Shown: positions 15,430-22,413 of the stretch, in pieces | Position numbering within the stretch: position 1 is the first letter of the stretch | Layout: every line of letters starts with the position of its first letter | Notes under the pieces: model-generated | Told to the model about the DNA's origin: nothing | The model's input: the letters and a program-made list of their open reading frames with translations, nothing else | Database searches by the model: none | Made by a program: the position numbers and the translations under genes | Source: Chloroflexota bacterium | Lineage (GTDB): Bacteria; Chloroflexota; Limnocylindria; Limnocylindrales; CSP1-4 | Direction: 5' to 3' | Assembly (NCBI GenBank): GCA_034436555.1 | Contig: DAOTUU010000033.1 | Span: 259,720 to 323,719 of the forward strand | Length of the DNA: 64,000 nt

Positions 15430-16113
15430 TCAGGGATAGTCGCCGGGCTGCCCCACCCTTCGCCGCGACACGGTAAGCCAGGCCAGGGCGAAAGAGGCCA
15501 CGAAGACTGCGCTCAACCTCCATAGAGTGTCGGGCCTCGATGTTTCGCGACCCCGGACGGTGGCCATAGCCGTCGGCGGTAGTTGGCCAGCGCCGACAAG
15601 AGACAGGGCATCCTGGAGGTCATGAACGTCCCACACGTCTGGATAGAGCCTTCGGGGTAGCTCGAACGCCACGAGTTCCACGCCATCCCCATCCAGCTCC
15701 CACGCGACCGTATTCCCGGCGTCAGGTGCCGCGAGATCAGCCGAGGAGACGAGGTACGTGCGACCTTCAACGAATGCGTTCAGCCCGTGGCAGGCGATGA
15801 CCTCGTATGTCACGGGGTCGTGCGCCACTGAACCGCGCACGACTCGCTCCACGCTCCAGCGGTGTTGCCGCGGGAAGGCGCCCGAATCATCCCCTTGGAA
15901 CGTGCCGATGAACGCATCGCCGGTGGCACTAGCGATGCGCATCGGCGCTCTGCGCTGGAGATCGCAGTCGGCGGCTACCGGCACCGAAAGGAGCATCACT
16001 CCGACCACCCCGCCCGCGACTGCTACCCACAGTGACCGAACGCTGCGAGGTGCGATCTTCACGAGCAGGCTACTGGGTGCACTGTGAGAGGCCTGAAACG
16101 CATACGTGGACAT
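15430..16113 (-). CDS. Hypothetical protein with an N-terminal signal/TM segment and a C-terminal TM anchor; lower GC than its surroundings
   Basis: ATG 16113 with GGGAG upstream (alternative GTG at 16062). KIAPRSVRSLWVAVAGGVVGVMLLSVPVAADCD signal-like. C-terminal LWRLSAVFVASFALAWLTV. The rest of ORF 15430..16800 overlaps the protease gene out of frame and was rejected. Confidence 0.5.
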   Translation of the reverse strand: MSTYAFQASHSAPSSLLVKIAPRSVRSLWVAVAGGVVGVMLLSVPVAADCDLQRRAPMRIASATGDAFIGTFQGDDSGAFPRQHRWSVERVVRGSVAHDPVTYEVIACHGLNAFVEGRTYLVSSADLAAPDAGNTVAWELDGDGVELVAFELPRRLYPDVWDVHDLQDALSLVGAGQLPPTAMATVRGRETSRPDTLWRLSAVFVASFALAWLTVSRRRVGQPGDYP

Positions 16114-17332
16114 CGAAGAGATCTCCCGTCCAGGATTGGTGGCGCGCATACCCCTCGTCCCCGGAGTGATCGCTCTCCCAGGGCTCGCAGTCATCGTCGT
16201 TCGGAATCGAGCGGCACCCAGACTGGATGCCGTAGATGGTGTGCCCGTAGAAGACAGGACCACCACTGTCACCGCCGGCCCACTGGTAGTAGCCCAACGC
16301 CTGTAGGTATAGCCAGACGTTTGTGGACTCGTTGAATGAGGCATACGTCGTGGTGATGACCTTGTCGGCGGCCCCGTAGCCGGTGGTCCTTCCGGACAGC
16401 CGGACTTTGGTCCCGGCGACTGCGCTTCCAACAGCGTCGATCGCCCACGCCTTCTCGTCGTTGCTGCGGTAGATCTTGTGTCCCTCCCACGCTTGGATGT
16501 CGCCCAAGCCGAGAATTGCGAAATCCGTGTAGCTGGTGGAGAAGTACGCATTCTTCTGCACACCTCCAAAGTCGTGGCCGTTCTGGTCGTGCCACTGGTC
16601 GCCGCCGGTGGCGTTGAAGCAGTGACCCGCGGACAGCATTCGAATCGCTCCGCCAGCTTTCCACGCGACAGCTCCCGTCGTGCAATCGTGGGAGCCGATG
16701 GTGAGCCCGCCTCTGGTCGGTGCTTGCCAGCAGTCATGTCGAGAGTTACATGCGGTATTCTGGGATCCTCTCCCCTCGACGACACGAACGAGACCGGCAT
16801 TGAACTCCGCCTCGGTCATCGCGCGGACAGCACCGATTTGGTTTCTGGGCGCCTCGACCTGGACGATGTTGTCCGCACCCCAGATCCCGAAGCCAACGAT
16901 GTCGGAGGCTCGCTGGTCCGACCGAGATGTCCAGTCCATCAACTTGCCCAGTACACCGTCAAGGGCTGCCTGGGAGTTTGGGACCACCTCGAACCTCGAC
17001 TCCACAAAGCCGGGAAGGGCGTCGCGAGCAGCGTCCCGCTGAGGCGCGGTAGTAGTCTCAAGAACCTGGATGACGACTCTGGGCGATGGTATGTCCTCGA
17101 TGTAGATACCGCCGTAGTCGCGCGGGGCAGACTCAATCAGCTCCACCAACGGACCGACTGAGTTCTGAACCTTTTCACGGAACAGCTCGTCATCTATCGA
17201 GCCGACCATCGTCTGAGCAATCCATTCTGCCGGTACCGCGGACGCGTCTCTGGCCCCCATGACCACGGATGCGCCGATCAGCAGGAGGCATGACGAAGCC
17301 GCGACCGCAAGTCCCGGCCGACGAGTTGCCAT
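16070..17332 (-). CDS. Secreted S1 family serine protease, alpha-lytic protease/streptogrisin-like, with N-terminal pro-region
   Basis: LSAGHC (His), GDSGGP (Ser), multiple Cys pairs. Signal peptide MATRRPGLAVAASSCLLLIGASVVMGARDASA. GGAGG 6 nt upstream of ATG 17332. GC3 is clearly lower than in flanking housekeeping genes. Confidence 0.8.
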   Translation of the reverse strand: MATRRPGLAVAASSCLLLIGASVVMGARDASAVPAEWIAQTMVGSIDDELFREKVQNSVGPLVELIESAPRDYGGIYIEDIPSPRVVIQVLETTTAPQRDAARDALPGFVESRFEVVPNSQAALDGVLGKLMDWTSRSDQRASDIVGFGIWGADNIVQVEAPRNQIGAVRAMTEAEFNAGLVRVVEGRGSQNTACNSRHDCWQAPTRGGLTIGSHDCTTGAVAWKAGGAIRMLSAGHCFNATGGDQWHDQNGHDFGGVQKNAYFSTSYTDFAILGLGDIQAWEGHKIYRSNDEKAWAIDAVGSAVAGTKVRLSGRTTGYGAADKVITTTYASFNESTNVWLYLQALGYYQWAGGDSGGPVFYGHTIYGIQSGCRSIPNDDDCEPWESDHSGDEGYARHQSWTGDLFDVHVCVSGLSQCTQ

Positions 17333-17705
17333 TGCTGCCCTCCTGTGTATGGAGCGTGCCCTCACGATTGGCTGCCCCGAACGATATCACCGTCGTTAAC
17401 GCACGGACAACGGCGAGGTCAAGGCGGCGCGGCAGGCAGTGGAGCACCGTTGGGACGCAGGTTGGCGTCGGGCGTGGCGCCTGCATGCAAAGAGGCCCAG
17501 GCGGCTCTCAGGTGACGGATCGGCTGCGATGAAATCTGCCGAGTCATCGACTTCGTTGCGGGGCGCACCTCGCATCACGGCCGATCCTGATTGGGTGCTG
17601 GTGAGCATCGATTCCTTGGCGCCTAGCGCTTCGGTCGCTCGCCGCAGCCGCCCTCCGGCGTCCCGTGTCGGAACCTGTCAAGTCGGATGAGACACGCGGT
17701 GTCGA

Positions 17706-18713
17706 TCAGGTCTGTGCAGGCGGCTCCTTCGGCGGGTTGATCCAGGCGGGTCCCGGCAGCCTCGGCGGCTCGGGGTGCCTGTTGACGAACCGCTCCGGAT
17801 GGGCGGCGTATGCGGCGTCCAGGACGAGGGCGCGCCGCTCGCGGACCAGGGTCGCTGTGCCGAGGTGGACCGAGGCGGGCGTGTGGTACCCGATGCCCGA
17901 GTGGCGATGCTCGTGGTTGTAGACGTCCATGAAGGGGCCCACGAACGCCCGCGCGTCCTCGATGCTCCCGAACCGCTCCGGGAAGCCGGGGCCGTGCTTG
18001 AGCGTCTTGAAGGCCGCCTCGCTGTAGGCGTTGTCGTTGGACACGCCCGGCCGACCGTGGGTGCGCCCGATGCGCAGGTCCGCCAGCAGCTGGGTCACGG
18101 GCTTGGAGGTCATCGGCGCGCCACGGTCGGCGTGGACCGTGAGGCGGCCGGGCTCGAAGGGTCCGTGGACCCGGACCAGGTCGGCGATCCAGCCGGCCAC
18201 GAGGTCGCCCCGCTCGTGGGGGACGACCATCCAGCCCGGGCAGTACCGGCTGTACAGGTCGAGCATCACGAACAGCCGGTACCAGACGCCCCTCCGGGGT
18301 CCGGGCAGCGCGGTCGCGTCGTAGGACCACACCCGGCACGGACCGTCGGCCACCAGCTCGGGGATCGTGCGGGGCGGATGGACCGCCTGGCGCCGGCGCT
18401 CGCGGACCCCGCCGTCGGCGCGCAGGATCCGGTACATCGTGGACTCGGACGCGAGGTACGTCCCCTCGTCGAGCAGCGTGGCCCACGCCTGGGCGGGCGC
18501 CCGGTCCACGAAGCGCTCCGAGCCGAGCACGTCCTTGACCGCCTCCCGCTCGTCCGGCGTCAGGGCGTTCGTCGGCGTCGGACGGGGGCGTGGCGGACCC
18601 TGGCGGGGCGGCAGGAGCCGGCGGTACCAGGTGGCGCGCGAGCGGCCCACCGCGGCACAGGCGCCCTTCGTGCCGACCAGCGGCAGGAGGTCGGCGAACG
18701 CGCTCTCGATCAC
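17706..18713 (-). CDS. IS3-family transposase OrfB (HTH_21 + DDE rve integrase core)
   Basis: CAAVGRSRATWYRRL (HTH_21), WSYDATAL (D), HADRGAPMTS (D), SNDNAYSEAAFKTLK (E). GTG 18713 with GGACGAGG upstream. The rest of ORF 17706..19490 overlaps the IS110 transposase gene and was rejected. Confidence 0.75.
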   Translation of the reverse strand: MIESAFADLLPLVGTKGACAAVGRSRATWYRRLLPPRQGPPRPRPTPTNALTPDEREAVKDVLGSERFVDRAPAQAWATLLDEGTYLASESTMYRILRADGGVRERRRQAVHPPRTIPELVADGPCRVWSYDATALPGPRRGVWYRLFVMLDLYSRYCPGWMVVPHERGDLVAGWIADLVRVHGPFEPGRLTVHADRGAPMTSKPVTQLLADLRIGRTHGRPGVSNDNAYSEAAFKTLKHGPGFPERFGSIEDARAFVGPFMDVYNHEHRHSGIGYHTPASVHLGTATLVRERRALVLDAAYAAHPERFVNRHPEPPRLPGPAWINPPKEPPAQT

Positions 18714-18779
18714 CGCGGCTGCCTCGTCCCCTCGTCGCCCTCGGCCAGCAGCCGCTCCAAGAGCTCCGATGCTAGCCTG

Positions 18780-20075
18780 AGAATCCCCAGGCTCGGCTCG
18801 ATCCCGATCAGGCGGCCTCGTCGAGGGTGACGTGGTAGCCAAGGGCCTCGAGGCGCTTGACCGTGCGCCGCACGGTCGCTGTCCGATCGCGCTGGTCGAA
18901 CCAGGTCGGGCCCAGCTCCTGGTACACGACACCGTCCCGGAGCAGGTGATACACGATGACCAGGATGGAGTGCCCGACCGCGACGGCCGCCCGGCCGGCG
19001 CCGCGCCGCGCGGCGATGCGCCGGTACTGGGCGGCGAGATAGGTGCCCTTCGTATGGGCGGCCGCGTGGGCCGCCTCGACGAGCGCGGTGCGGAGCCAGG
19101 CGTTGCCCGGGCCGGTCGCCCCGGATCGGCGCTTGCCGGCGCTCTCGTCGGTGCCAGGGCAGACCCGCGCCCAGGAGGCGAGGTGGGCTGCGGACGGGAA
19201 GCGGGACATGTCCGGGCCGATCTCCGCGAGGATGGCCTCAGCCGTCCGCAGCGCGACACCCGGGATGGAGTCGACGAGCGCCAGCGTGGCCCCGAAAGGG
19301 CGCATCCGCTCCGCCACCTCGGCCGACAGGGTCGCGATCTCAGCGTCCAGGAAGTCGATGTGCCGCAGCTGCGCCCCGAGCATCCGACGCTGGTGCTCGC
19401 CGAGCAGGCCGCGGAGCGCGGCCACGAGCCGGTCGTGCTTGGAGCGCAGTCGCCCGCGTGCGAGCCCCGCGAGCGCCTCGGCATCGTCACCCCCGGCCAC
19501 GATCGCCTCGAGCATCGCCCGCCCTGACACCCCCAGCAGGTCGGAGGCGACCGCGCCGAGCTTGATGTCGGCGCCCTCGAGGACCTTGTGCAGCCGCTGG
19601 ACCTCGCGGCCGCGCTCGTCGATCAGCCTGCGCCGGTGGCGCACGAGCTCGCGCTGGGCCCGGTCGGGGACGAAGCTGCCCCGCAGCAGGCCGTGGCGCA
19701 GCAGGTCGGCGACCCGCTCCGCGTCCCTCACGTCGGTCTTGCGTCCGGGCACCGCGCGCATGTGGCGGGCGTTCACGAGGAGCAGCTCGAGGCCGCCACC
19801 CTCGAGCAGGTTGTACACCGGCTTCCAGCAGACGCCGGTGCTCTCCATCGCGGCGTGGGTCACGCCCCGATCGGCGAGCCAGTCGGCCAGCTCGAGCAGG
19901 CCGGCGGTGACCGCACCGAACGTGCGCACCTCGCGGCCCTCGGGGGTGATGACGCAGGCGACCACCGTGTCCCGGTGGACGTCGAGCCCTGCGCAACGTT
20001 CGTGGAGCACCTCCATCGCGCACCTCCATCCGGTCTGGCGGTGGCGGGCTCGACGACCGGAGCGCGAGAATCTAG
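18780..20075 (-). mobile_element. IS110-family insertion sequence nested inside the IS3 element
   Basis: The transposase gene fills most of the element. Junctions carry TAGCCTG/AGAATC (18771-18784) and GAGAATC/TAGCCTG (20066-20079). Boundaries are approximate. Confidence 0.65.
18808..20016 (-). CDS. IS110-family transposase (DEDD N-terminal domain + C-terminal transposase_20 domain)
   Basis: MEVLHERCAGLDVHRDTVVACV (DEDD motif 1), ESTGVCWKP. C-terminal LRTALVEAAHAAAHTKGTYLAAQYRRIAARRG. GGAGGTG RBS 5 nt upstream of ATG 20016. Confidence 0.9.
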   Translation of the reverse strand: MEVLHERCAGLDVHRDTVVACVITPEGREVRTFGAVTAGLLELADWLADRGVTHAAMESTGVCWKPVYNLLEGGGLELLLVNARHMRAVPGRKTDVRDAERVADLLRHGLLRGSFVPDRAQRELVRHRRRLIDERGREVQRLHKVLEGADIKLGAVASDLLGVSGRAMLEAIVAGGDDAEALAGLARGRLRSKHDRLVAALRGLLGEHQRRMLGAQLRHIDFLDAEIATLSAEVAERMRPFGATLALVDSIPGVALRTAEAILAEIGPDMSRFPSAAHLASWARVCPGTDESAGKRRSGATGPGNAWLRTALVEAAHAAAHTKGTYLAAQYRRIAARRGAGRAAVAVGHSILVIVYHLLRDGVVYQELGPTWFDQRDRTATVRRTVKRLEALGYHVTLDEAA

Positions 20076-20181
20076 CCTGCGTGCTCCCCGGCGTGGGCCG
20101 GGGGCGACAATGGGTGGTGCCTGCGGTCGTCGGGGTCCAGACTTTTCACGGGCTGTCGGCACCAAGCGAGCACGGCCTCGA

Positions 20182-20568
20182 TCAACCCGCCACCGGCACC
20201 ATTCTCATCCACCGGGTGGTGCGGCGGAACGGCGCATCGATGACTTTTCCCTGGATGCCGATCACCAGGCGCGCCTTCGCCAGGTCCGCCTCGGCTCTCT
20301 CGGCCCTGCGGCGCAGTCGGGCCAGCTCGGCCTGCTCCGGGCTGGTCGCGCGAGGGCGGGGCCGCTGCCCCAGACCGGCGAGTGCGCCCGCGTCCCGGGC
20401 CCGGCGCCACTCCACGATGTGGGAGCTGTACAGGCCCTCGCGGCGCAGGAGCGAGCCCCGCGATCCGTCGGTCGGGGCGGCGTCGTACTCGGCCAGGATC
20501 GTCGCCTTGTACTCCGCGGTGAAGGTCCGGCGCACCGGGCGCTCGGGAGGGGTCGGGTCTCCGTCCAT
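20182..20568 (-). CDS. IS3-family transposase OrfA (HTH + leucine zipper)
   Basis: RRTFTAEYKATILAEY (IS3 OrfA HTH), LARLRRRAERAEADLAKARLVIGIQGK (zipper). Start uncertain (ATG at 20568, 20592 or 20613). Ends just after a GGGAAAA heptamer. Confidence 0.7.
   Translation of the reverse strand: MDGDPTPPERPVRRTFTAEYKATILAEYDAAPTDGSRGSLLRREGLYSSHIVEWRRARDAGALAGLGQRPRPRATSPEQAELARLRRRAERAEADLAKARLVIGIQGKVIDAPFRRTTRWMRMVPVAG
20245..20251 (-). other. Candidate -1 programmed ribosomal frameshift heptamer G GGA AAA (X XXY YYZ) at the 3' end of IS3 orfA
   Basis: Minus strand reads atc cag GGA AAA gtc in the orfA frame. The -1 frame continues open (…GLIEAVLAWCRQPVKSLDPDD…) until a TAG created at the IS110 junction. 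Confidence 0.45.
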
Positions 20569-20891
20569 GGCCGCATGATGCGCGCGCTCCATGGTCAGCG
20601 TCGTGATGCTCATGGTCGTCAGGCTGGTGTCCTTCTCGCCCTGTGGGATGACGGGTCGCTGCCCGTGTCTCACCCTATGCTGACAGACAGGGAAGCATGC
20701 AACCGCCGCTGGACAGAAGACTCCACCGCCAGCGTGTGCGATCGCGCCCTTCGCACGCTGCCCGCGCACCGCAAAGACCACGAGGCTGGCCTCGACCAGC
20801 GTCCGTCCCGGGCGCCGCCGAGGATTGCCGCGTCGCGCCGCTCCGCGCTGGTCGGGTGTGCCCCTTCGCGGCTTCGAACAGGTCGCCCCTG

Positions 20892-21155
20892 ATGGCACTA
20901 CATCATGCACAATGCAGCTATGGTGCATCGTGTGAGAACACCGTCGACCTTTCGCCCGCTGCGCGTGCATTGGAAGTCGCCGCAGCGCGGGGCATGTCGC
21001 TCTCGGCGACGATCGCGGACCTGACGTCACTGGGTCTGGAGCGCATGCGCGAACCGGTGACGCTGTCCATCGATGCGCAGTCTGGGTTCCCGGTGATGCG
21101 GTTCGGGTGGCGCATCACGAACGAGGATATCAGGGCCGCCCTGGACGACGAGTGA
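20892..21155 (+). CDS. Small ribbon-helix-helix-like protein, possible orphan antitoxin/regulator; low GC3
   Basis: VDLSPAARALEVAAARGMSLSATIADLTSLGLERMRE resembles RHH/CopG. Codon usage (gca cta cat cat gca caa tgc agc tat) is unlike the host genes. A weak call. Confidence 0.3.
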   Translation: MALHHAQCSYGASCENTVDLSPAARALEVAAARGMSLSATIADLTSLGLERMREPVTLSIDAQSGFPVMRFGWRITNEDIRAALDDE

Positions 21156-21300: not shown

Positions 21301-22413
21301 TCAGGTGGGTTCGGGGTCGTCAGGATCGCCGGTCGGGACGCCTTCGGCGGTCGCCGCGGACCGGCCATGCGGGTCGCCTGGGCGATGGACGTCGCGATAC
21401 CGCCAGCGCCGGTAGCGGTCACGGGCGGTCGCCCCCAGCCCCAGGACACGGGAGCCGACGGGAGCCAGCGTCAGGCGCCACGCTCCCACGTAGTCGACCT
21501 CGTGCCCGCCGAAGCCGCTCTTGAACTGCTCGATGCCCTCGCGCGGCAGGCCCCACAGGTCGTACTGCGTGTAGCCAGCCGCCTTCATGCGCCGCAGCGC
21601 CTCCCACTTGAGGAGGTAGTTCGCGCGACGCCGGGCGCCCTTCTCGGTGGTGCCGCCGTACAGGTCCGCGACCCGCCGGCCGCAGCCGACGAGGAGCACC
21701 GCCGCCACCGCCTCGCCCGTGTCCACGGCCTCCGCGAACAGCAGGTGGGCCTTGCCGCGCGGCGCCAGGTGGGTCCACATCTCCCGGAACGCCTCCTCGC
21801 TCCGGGGCGCGATGCCGGCCCGCTGCAGTGCCTCCGCGTGGATCGCGTGCAGCTCGCCGATGCGTGCCGCGTCGCCCGCGACCACGCACACTCCGAGCCG
21901 CTCCGACTTGGACACCGACTGGCGAGTCTTGCGGTGCATGCCCGCCAGGATCGCTGGCTCGTCCTGGGCCAGGTCGATGATGCGCGTGCGGTCGGGCTGG
22001 ACGTGGTCGGTGCGCCGCCATCCTGCGCGGATCAGCTCGCGCGCCAGCCGCCCGTCCCCCGCGTCCGCCTCGGGCTCCATCACGATCGTCGCTAGCCGGT
22101 GACGCCGCCCCGCCTCGCGCAGGCGCCGGGTGACGGCCAAGACCTGCGCCCGGCTCAGCGTCCCGTCCGCGGTGACGGGTCCGCGCGCGAGGTAGCCCAG
22201 CCCCCAGGGCAGGCCACGCGGACGCTGCACCAGCACCTGCGCCCCCACGAGGCCGCCGTCCGGGTCCGCGGCGACGCGGAACGAGGACCAGCCATTCGGC
22301 CGCTTGACCGCCGCCCAGGCGCTCGACTGGAGGTGGCAGGGCGCCGCGGACGCCGCCAGGAACGCCTCCCAGGCCACCTCGTCGACCTCCAGCCGGGCGG
22401 CGGCGTCGGTCAC
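21301..22413 (-). CDS. FemAB-family peptidoglycan aminoacyltransferase (tRNA-dependent lipid II peptidyltransferase-like)
   Basis: GTG 22413 overlaps the hisS stop (GTGA). WEAFLAASAAPCHLQSSAWAAVKRPNGW, YLLKWEALRRMKAAGYTQYDLWGLPREGIEQFKSGFGGHEV (Fem C-terminal signature). 370 aa. Confidence 0.8.
   Translation of the reverse strand: MTDAAARLEVDEVAWEAFLAASAAPCHLQSSAWAAVKRPNGWSSFRVAADPDGGLVGAQVLVQRPRGLPWGLGYLARGPVTADGTLSRAQVLAVTRRLREAGRRHRLATIVMEPEADAGDGRLARELIRAGWRRTDHVQPDRTRIIDLAQDEPAILAGMHRKTRQSVSKSERLGVCVVAGDAARIGELHAIHAEALQRAGIAPRSEEAFREMWTHLAPRGKAHLLFAEAVDTGEAVAAVLLVGCGRRVADLYGGTTEKGARRRANYLLKWEALRRMKAAGYTQYDLWGLPREGIEQFKSGFGGHEVDYVGAWRLTLAPVGSRVLGLGATARDRYRRWRYRDVHRPGDPHGRSAATAEGVPTGDPDDPEPT

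Follow-up and report, generated by a model that had tools for sequence, protein, structure and literature searches.

A probable bridge-RNA transposon of the IS110 family nested on the predicted frameshift heptamer of an IS3-family element in a Chloroflexota bacterium

We analysed a stretch of 64,000 nucleotides from a Chloroflexota bacterium (GenBank assembly GCA_034436555.1, contig DAOTUU010000033.1, positions 259,720 to 323,719 of the forward strand), which is referred to here in full as the window. We are highly confident that this DNA carries an IS110-family element of 1472 bp nested in an IS3-family element, in the same orientation and directly on the −1 slippery heptamer of the latter, and that the IS110 element is a bridge-RNA (seekRNA) transposon. 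A preliminary description of the window had proposed an insertion between orfA and orfB that disables the IS3 element, and had named the comparison with intact IS3 copies as its test. Such relatives exist without the insert, and the comparison favoured nesting. All the nested features lie on the minus strand, and the positions given are those of the window. The parts of the host element and the position of the insert are as follows.

17669 to 20692, minus strand: whole IS3-family element including the IS110 insert, its ends being the points at which copies in seven contexts stop being alike.
20664 to 20692, minus strand: left imperfect inverted repeat of the IS3 element, CCCTGTCTGTCAGCATAGGGTGAGACACG, kept in all relatives while the flanks differ.
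20244 to 20613, minus strand: native part of orfA, 123 codons ending in IQGK, from the alignment with 143-residue OrfA homologues.
20245 to 20251, minus strand: heptamer G GGA AAA for −1 slippage, read in the 0 frame as CAG GGA AAA.
18772 to 20243, minus strand: IS110-family element, 1472 bp, delimited by virtual excision.
17706 to 18771, minus strand: IS3 DNA beyond the insert, with the 20 terminal orfA codons and the complete orfB (rve domain, DD(35)E), free of stops.
17669 to 17696, minus strand: right imperfect inverted repeat of the IS3 element, CGTGTCTCATCCGACTTGACAGGTTCCG, from the comparison of copies.

The intact relatives were searched for with an OrfA sequence rebuilt on the assumption that the insertion runs from after GGGAAAAG to just before CATCGGAGC. 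This query had thousands of homologues, and the best intact ones were exactly 143 residues long and about 85% identical, with full query coverage. The OrfA actually encoded in the window matched these homologues only up to residue 123. We observed that the intact OrfA proteins all end in IQGKASELL(G/E)RLLAEGDE..RQPR, while that of the window switches to VIDAPFRRTTRWMRMVPVAG after IQGK, and that the native tail, ASELLERLLAEGDEGTRQPR, is encoded from 18771 downstream. At the DNA level, the intact IS3 relatives read ATCCAGGGAAAAG followed immediately by CATCGGAGCTC, and removal of 18772-20243 (1472 bp) from the window gives exactly the same reading. The DNA of the three intact copies that were aligned (L081-L083) was collinear from end to end with the window minus this segment. 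The junction created by virtual excision, ATCCAGGGAAAAGCATCGGAGCTC (ATCCAGGGAAAAGCATCGGAGCTCTTGG in a longer stretch), was identical to that of L081, and after the excision the −1 frame enters orfB. The earlier conclusion that no excision model restores the frame thus falls away; those models had failed because the left end of the insert was placed near 20079. The copy had also been called a fossil, but both IS3 frames and both ends are intact and collinear with the relatives.

The dinucleotide AG is present at both junctions (20245-20244 and 18773-18772), so that the boundary is ambiguous by 2 nt. When the empty site was reconstructed, one copy of AG remained. There was no further target duplication and there were no terminal inverted repeats, as is characteristic of the IS110 family. 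The first base of the IS110 element follows the heptamer directly (the base before it is the final G of GGGAAAAG); its left end lies some 165 nt further upstream than first proposed, and the last two bases of the heptamer, AG, are also the core dinucleotide of the IS110 element. A CATCG repeat was evaluated as a possible insertion duplication as well (target GGGAAAAGTCATCGG, with an in-frame fusion of orfA and orfB); intact relatives read GGGAAAAGCATCGG, and this candidate was rejected.

The left boundary could be drawn differently, with an IS110 element of only about 1.3 kb bounded by an 8-bp repeat, CAGGCTAG, at 20079-20072 and 18779-18772. The 165 nt upstream would then be native IS3 linker, in an IS3 element that was already defective or had an unusual orfA-orfB arrangement. 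The repeat is real and resembles a target duplication, and the disrupted orfA encodes 143 residues by chance, the same length as the native OrfA. However, these 165 nt occur in no intact IS3 relative; their homology is with the left ends of IS110 relatives, and most of the conserved RNA described below falls within them. The upstream CAGGCTAG itself sits at the conserved donor-guide position, right after AGCACG in every relative. The intact IS3 relatives and the homology of the left end and its RNA already refute the shorter element, to which we give practically no credence. The preliminary description had drawn just such a 1.3-kb element from about 20079, with orfA ending at the heptamer and a linker behind it. 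That linker is non-coding DNA of the IS110 element, whose left end had been cut about 165 nt short: the element is 1472 bp long and begins at 20243.

With the nested arrangement established in this way, the consequences for the IS3 element can be followed in its reading frames. The disrupted orfA begins with an ATG at 20613 and continues into IS110 DNA until it meets a stop at 20184-20182; it now ends with 20 foreign codons. The slippery G GGA AAA had been correctly recognized, and it lies in the proper 0 frame at 20251-20245. The motif GGGAAA(A/G) is conserved in L081-L091, and some intact relatives (L082/L083) carry G GGA AAG, which is also slippery. The 70 nt between the heptamer and the orfA stop are nearly invariant in DNA, compared with an identity of only about 85% in the adjacent coding sequence, and this conserved overlap window includes a possible GCGGCUGC/GCAGCCGC stem. 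As orfB and the 70-nt overlap window are now 1.47 kb away from the heptamer, no OrfAB transposase could be made, and the IS3 element is, as judged from its frames, disabled by the insertion.

The open frame at 18776-17706 (minus strand) matched the Pfam domains rve (PF00665, 4.9e-15) and rve_3 (PF13683). It carries the motifs WSYD and HADRG and a glutamate 36 residues past the second aspartate, in agreement with the DDE triad reported earlier for orfB. The HTH_21 domain that had been assigned alongside it was absent from the Pfam matches, in which only HTH_32 and HTH_Tnp_1 appeared, both below threshold. The −1 fusion restored by virtual excision is 478 residues long and covers positions 1-369 of the 369 in the NCBIfam IS3 model NF033516, at 173.7 bits against a cut-off of 160. 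After virtual excision, orfA and orfB thus lie in the 0 and −1 frames with a slippery heptamer that is predicted to cause frameshifting, as in members of the IS3 family.

Alternatively, orfB might normally be made by translational coupling, the orfA stop overlapping a GTG start (GTGA). The heptamer would then be incidental, and the insertion would merely separate orfA from orfB. Gene callers do start orfB at the GTG that overlaps the orfA stop in all the relatives. Against this, the GGA-AAA/G codons are kept in every relative despite a G+C content of 73%, the 70-nt window is nearly invariant and both frames are open. The −1 fusion also matches the IS3 OrfAB model as one continuous stretch, and an OrfAB fusion is the established rule across the IS3 family. 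We therefore regard coupling as unlikely and retain frameshifting as the predicted route to OrfAB.

The ends of the IS3 element were defined by comparing copies in seven different contexts (L081-L091 and the window). Conservation reaches CCCTGTCTGTCAG on the left (20692) and CTTGACAGGTTCCG on the right (17669), which gives a length of 1552 bp without the IS110 insert. The sequence TGAGACACG had been taken for the termini. It does occur exactly twice in the window, in inverted orientation (17688-17696 on the plus strand and 20672-20664 on the minus strand), but it forms only the inner 9 nt of imperfect repeats of about 28 bp each, and conservation extends beyond it to 20692 and 17669. The window copy is not bordered by direct repeats (left CTT, right ACA; 17664-17668 and 20693-20697). 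Among the four IS3 copies for which both flanks are available, one has such a repeat (4-bp CCTC, in L086). The lack of a repeat around the window copy may reflect a later rearrangement, or a transposition that produced no duplication. In comparison with IS3, IS911 and IS150, the element shares an orfA with a helix-turn-helix, an overlapping orfB with a DD(35)E rve domain, and an overlap that contains a heptamer of the form X XXY YYZ. Here it reads G GGA AAA/G, whereas theirs is A AAA AAG. The termini also differ, being imperfect repeats of about 28 bp that read CCCTG... and ...TTCCG, as against TG...CA with direct repeats of 3-5 bp in the family.

The inserted element encodes an intact transposase, an upstream RNA and short guide sequences, which are located as follows.

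18808 to 20016, minus strand: IS110-family RNA-guided transposase, 402 residues, intact, from Pfam, NCBIfam and the alignment with IS621.
20017 to 20243, minus strand: left end of the IS110 element, 227 nt, non-coding, from the alignment with 15 relatives.
18772 to 18807, minus strand: right end of the IS110 element, 36 nt; relatives end in (A)TTTTC, 5 nt and the core.
20048 to 20180, minus strand: putative bridge/seek RNA core with seven helices, from covariance model R1.
20165 to 20173, minus strand: right-target guide region GUGCUCGCU, on the 5' side of the loop that binds the target, from complementarity in relatives.
20140 to 20149, minus strand: left-target guide GUGAAAAGUC, from its match to the left junction.
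20112 to 20120, minus strand: 5' strand of the donor-binding loop, GCACCACCC, of the same sense as 20222-20214 in the left end.
20072 to 20079, minus strand: left-donor guide CAGGCUAG, identical to the last 8 nt of the IS110 element (18779-18772).

The DEDD transposase had been identified correctly at the outset. The frame at 20016-18808 matched the Pfam domains DEDD_Tnp_IS110 (PF01548, 3.7e-30) and Transposase_20 (PF02371, 1.3e-20), and scored 258 bits with the NCBIfam model NF033542 (IS110 family RNA-guided transposase; cut-off 140). Its residues D12, E58, D95, D98 and S292 align with the catalytic D11, E60, D102, D105 and S241 of IS621 (PDB 8wt6). The protein thus has the DEDD RuvC-like domain and the Tnp domain with a catalytic serine that are found in the IS110 family. 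A tblastn search against plasmids, which was meant to place the transposase in the IS110 or the IS1111 group, returned only generic 'IS110 family transposase' labels.

We compared the left end with 80 loci that encode relatives of the transposase (42-67% identity). The regions upstream of these genes share conserved blocks with 20243-20017, and RNAalifold on 16 diverse sequences gave a structure of several helices in which 23 of 36 pairs were kept through double changes. In the 64-kb window, model R1 had a single match, at 20180-20048 (99.4 bits, E 1.6e-24). Most of the 80 loci likewise had a match upstream of their transposase gene (80 matches in all, a few loci having two). Across 62 distinct sequences, 93.3% of the cells were paired and 24 of 31 pairs showed compensatory changes. 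The covariation score was 0.51, as against 0.07-0.13 when the partners were slid by 1-3 columns, and pairing was 93% as against 33-52%; the alignment is fitted to the model and so favours the structure, a bias that the slid control carries as well. The window copy itself forms 29 of the 31 consensus pairs. The element therefore has a long non-coding end with a conserved structured RNA, as other IS110-family elements do.

Some loci gave a second R1 match beside the first element (L005:3805-3933, L038:3991-4122, L029:3945-4086 and L028:415-548). In these cases IS110-type elements lie inside or beside other IS110-type elements; the L005 element, for example, is bordered on its right by the left end of another.

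Besides the RNA, the left end holds a conserved hairpin at 20237-20220 with compensatory changes. The right end contains a subterminal repeat, ATTCTCA (18784-18778), followed by the left-donor sequence AGGCT and the core AG (18778-18772). ATTCTCA pairs over 7 bp with a left subterminal repeat, TGAGAAT (20207-20201); the distance to the end of the element is 7 nt on the right and 36 nt on the left. The pair co-varies in the relatives (ATTTTCA/TGAAAAT, GTTTCA/TGAAAC and CTTTC/GAAAG).

The left guides of IS621 are complementary to the bottom strand and hence read like the top strand of the left target and the left donor, core included (PMC11208160). The same arrangement could be recognized in the window. 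In the left-target guide, GAAA and AG match the target GGGAAAAG, and the following UC (20141-20140) matches the first two bases of the element. After the left-donor guide comes AUUCUC (20071-20066), which forms the 3' side of helix 4 opposite AGG at 20122-20120. Copies of CAGGCTAG and ATTCTC had been noticed before, in permuted order, at 20079-20066 and 18784-18772. They are present there, but not at both junctions, as had been thought, since the upstream copy lies 164 nt inside the IS110 element. It consists of the donor guide and the helix-4 strand, and the downstream copy (ATTCTC-AGGCTAG) of the right subterminal repeat, the left-donor sequence and the core. The occurrence of ATTCTC in the helix-4 strand as well is largely coincidence; relatives read AATTCC, ACTCTG and so on at this place.

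We observed the same guides in the relatives. In every one, the 7-8 nt after AGCACG are the last 7-8 nt of the element, which themselves follow (A)TTTTC. The 8-11 nt after GAGCCCG correspond to the sequence of the left junction, which lies about 215-250 nt upstream of the gene. A 7-nt target guide was found in the element's own left flank in 29 of 46 cases, as against 1.2% of mismatched pairs, and a 9-nt guide (including two element-derived bases) in 25 of 46, as against 0.05%. A 7-nt donor guide recurred at the right end of its own element in 32 of 42 comparisons, as against 0.8% of mismatched pairs. The core was identical in both guides in 51 of 54 elements (AG in 31, AA in 9 and TG in 11). 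The loops thus match the left flank with the core and the left half of the donor with the core, as expected for an IS110-family bridge RNA. The 2-3 nt by which the target guide extends past the core are the first bases of the element and not the right flank in 25 of the 29 relatives with a 7-nt match. This extension may be a handshake-like contact, or it may serve to recognize the junction after insertion.

The remaining strands of the two loops gave signals of a different kind. On the target side, UGCU (20172-20169) is the reverse complement of AGCA, the core with 2 nt of the right flank. In the relatives, 100 of 180 positions of the right-target guide were complementary to the core and right flank, compared with 52.5 +/- 6 in permutations. 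On the donor side, positions +22 to +30 of the left end, next to the left subterminal repeat, show same-sense co-variation with the 5' strand of the loop. The mean longest shared word was 5.04, compared with 3.77 +/- 0.16 in permutations, and the two segments (20110-20120 and 20212-20222 in the window) change together (e.g. GCACACTG in L054 and GCATCACCG in L028). This same-sense match is unlike the top-strand pairing expected of a right-donor guide.

Individual groups of relatives were also informative. Seven copies from Alicyclobacillus fastidiosus have differing flanks, with CATAAG common to them on the left and CACGGTAG at the right end. Metagenome relatives with 77-86% identity (L092, L093, L095, L099 and L103) have the same CAGGCUAG and the same right end as the window element. 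Their target guides read CGUUAG, UCUUAG or AGUUAG, and none of these elements sits in an IS3. Three of these contigs (L093, L095 and L099) include the left flank of the element, and each target guide there matches its own flank. These relatives show natural reprogramming of the target guide.

The nesting and its boundaries could hold even if the left-end RNA were only a leader or regulatory RNA, the insertion into the heptamer having occurred by chance or been directed by the protein. The left junction of the window copy matches its guide over only 6 contiguous bases and 2 element-derived ones, and the match to the right flank is weak, both of which would suit this possibility. We nevertheless consider it very improbable. 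The concordance of guides and flanks in the relatives is far above the permuted controls for target and donor alike, both loops carry the same core in 51 of 54 elements, and the close relatives combine one donor guide with different target guides, three of which match their own left flanks. In addition, the mechanism has been demonstrated for members of the family (PMC11208160, PMC11187229).

If the RNA does act as a bridge RNA, one of its loops would carry the guide for the left flank of the target together with the AG core, and the second loop the guide for the element's own right end with the same core. By homology, the DEDD/Ser recombinase would use this RNA to pair the circularised element with the target and recombine the two at AG. 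The circle junction would read ...ATTCTCAGGCTAG joined to TCATCGATGCG. We infer RNA-guided recombination, circular intermediates and precise excision for this element from its homology with IS621 and ISEc21 (PMC11208160, PMC11208158, PMC11187229, PMC13626964).

Such a mechanism would also account for the place of insertion. GAAAAG occurs only twice in the 62.5 kb of the restored window (73% G+C), where about six occurrences are expected. One is at the IS3 heptamer and the other is at 17178-17171, and the IS110 element probably landed on the slippery site because this A-rich heptamer was one of only two such sites. The IS110 and IS3 elements point in the same direction, as strand-specific guiding requires; we may speculate that, with this shared direction, read-through from orfA could supply the RNA. 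The second site, GTGAAAAG, lies inside the open reading frame (ORF) 16070-17365, about 500 bp from the IS3 element, and its right flank is GTTC, compared with CATC at the occupied site.

Several observations weigh against a guided insertion as outlined here. The site at 17178-17171 (minus strand) fits the left guide better than the occupied one, being a perfect match, yet it is unoccupied. The right-flank match in the window is weak, comprising the core and 1-2 nt (the core and 1 nt in the register homologous to that of the relatives). A guide complementary to the beginning of the left end was looked for without success, and a k-mer search for the complement of the core plus the left-end start gave no recurrent signal. 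Folded as a single sequence, the left end was indistinguishable from shuffled sequences (z = -0.71), a comparison that is uninformative in G+C-rich DNA. A search of 17400-21000 against Rfam 15, with E up to 10, returned no bridge RNA family and two chance-level matches. A sigma-70 promoter scan of the integrated element found none. No convincing -35/-10 pair was seen when the reconstructed right-end/left-end junction was read by eye. The IS110 protein of the window is a singleton in the protein collection, alone in its own 90%-identity cluster with its best relative 86% identical.

The other searches for further copies were negative too. The orfA product of the window was also a singleton in an exact-protein look-up, and neither for it nor for the transposase did such a look-up yield a contig. 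Comparison of the window with itself revealed no second copy of either element, a megablast of the whole region against plasmids gave no match, and the exact DNA pattern around the target guide returned nothing from metagenomes.

IS621 (PMC11208160, PMC11208158) is among the closest known systems. Both elements have the DEDD RuvC-like and Ser Tnp domains with the five catalytic residues aligned, ends of unequal length (the left one long and non-coding, the right one short), a structured RNA whose two loops serve the target and the donor, left guides of the same sense as the top strand, and a core dinucleotide in both loops and at both junctions, without terminal inverted repeats. The differences are also clear. 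The protein match is distant (phmmer E 4e-13), and the core is AG here and CT there. In each loop the right-side strand is 5' and the left guide 3', the reverse of the order in IS621. The left-target guide runs 2-3 nt into the first bases of the element; this recalls the handshake guides of IS621, which, however, sit on the guide for the other strand (PMC11208158). The subterminal inverted repeat has 7 bp here and 2-3 bp there, and a right-donor guide complementary to the beginning of the left end was not found in the window element.

With the IS1111-type seekRNA elements (ISEc11, ISKpn4, ISPa11 and IS4321/IS5075; PMC11187229), the window element shares subterminal inverted repeats, an RNA order in which the complement of the target top strand precedes the bottom-strand guide, and a habit of landing in mobile elements; according to work cited in PMC11208160, IS4321/IS5075 target the ends of the Tn21 family. 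It differs from them in that the non-coding region is upstream of the transposase gene and not downstream, although Siddiquee et al. describe exceptions in its location (PMC11187229). The repeats also differ, with 7 bp at 7 nt (right) and 36 nt (left) from the ends here, as against 11-13 bp at 3 and 7 bp there.

As can be seen from these comparisons, the element follows neither group completely. With 227 nt of non-coding DNA upstream and 36 nt downstream of the transposase gene, it resembles the IS110 group. The left guide does not come first in the RNA, as it does in that group (PMC11208160, PMC11187229): the right-target region (20173-20165) lies 5' of the left-target guide (20149-20140), and the donor guide is likewise 3' in its loop, which is the IS1111-type order. 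The 11-13 bp repeats with 7-bp and 3-bp extensions and the downstream non-coding region that characterize the IS1111 group are absent. The window element and its relatives, which comprise more than 50 distinct guide pairs in many phyla, might represent a bridge-RNA architecture not yet described as such (a left-end RNA, IS1111-like guide order with a co-varying 7-bp repeat, the guide extension and a second donor contact). We put this forward only tentatively, as a possibility that we think less likely than its opposite.

The composite element lies between two minus-strand ORFs. One of them, 16070-17365, probably encodes a secreted trypsin-like serine protease (GDSGGP motif). The other, 21301-22413, encodes 370 residues and appears FemAB-like from its translation.

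The nested pair joins two known kinds of element and is an ordinary but clean case with an already established mechanism. The IS110 and the IS3 element each represent a new sequence variant, and knowledge of the two families is unchanged by them. The IS3 element appears interrupted and not decayed, and both elements look otherwise intact at the sequence level; the insertion is therefore probably recent and reversible through precise excision. Excision by the same ribonucleoprotein would restore a complete IS3 element, and precise excision has been documented for IS621 (PMC13626964). There is also a lesson for annotation. Elements of the IS110 type lack inverted repeats, and one of their guides duplicates the right end of the element itself. 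Looking naively for direct repeats on either side of such an insertion therefore picks the guide in place of the true left end and cuts off the RNA gene. Together, these observations provide a natural example of an RNA-guided transposon that disables another transposon at the latter's most A-rich functional signal, with close relatives in which the target guide has been naturally reprogrammed while the donor guide has stayed fixed.

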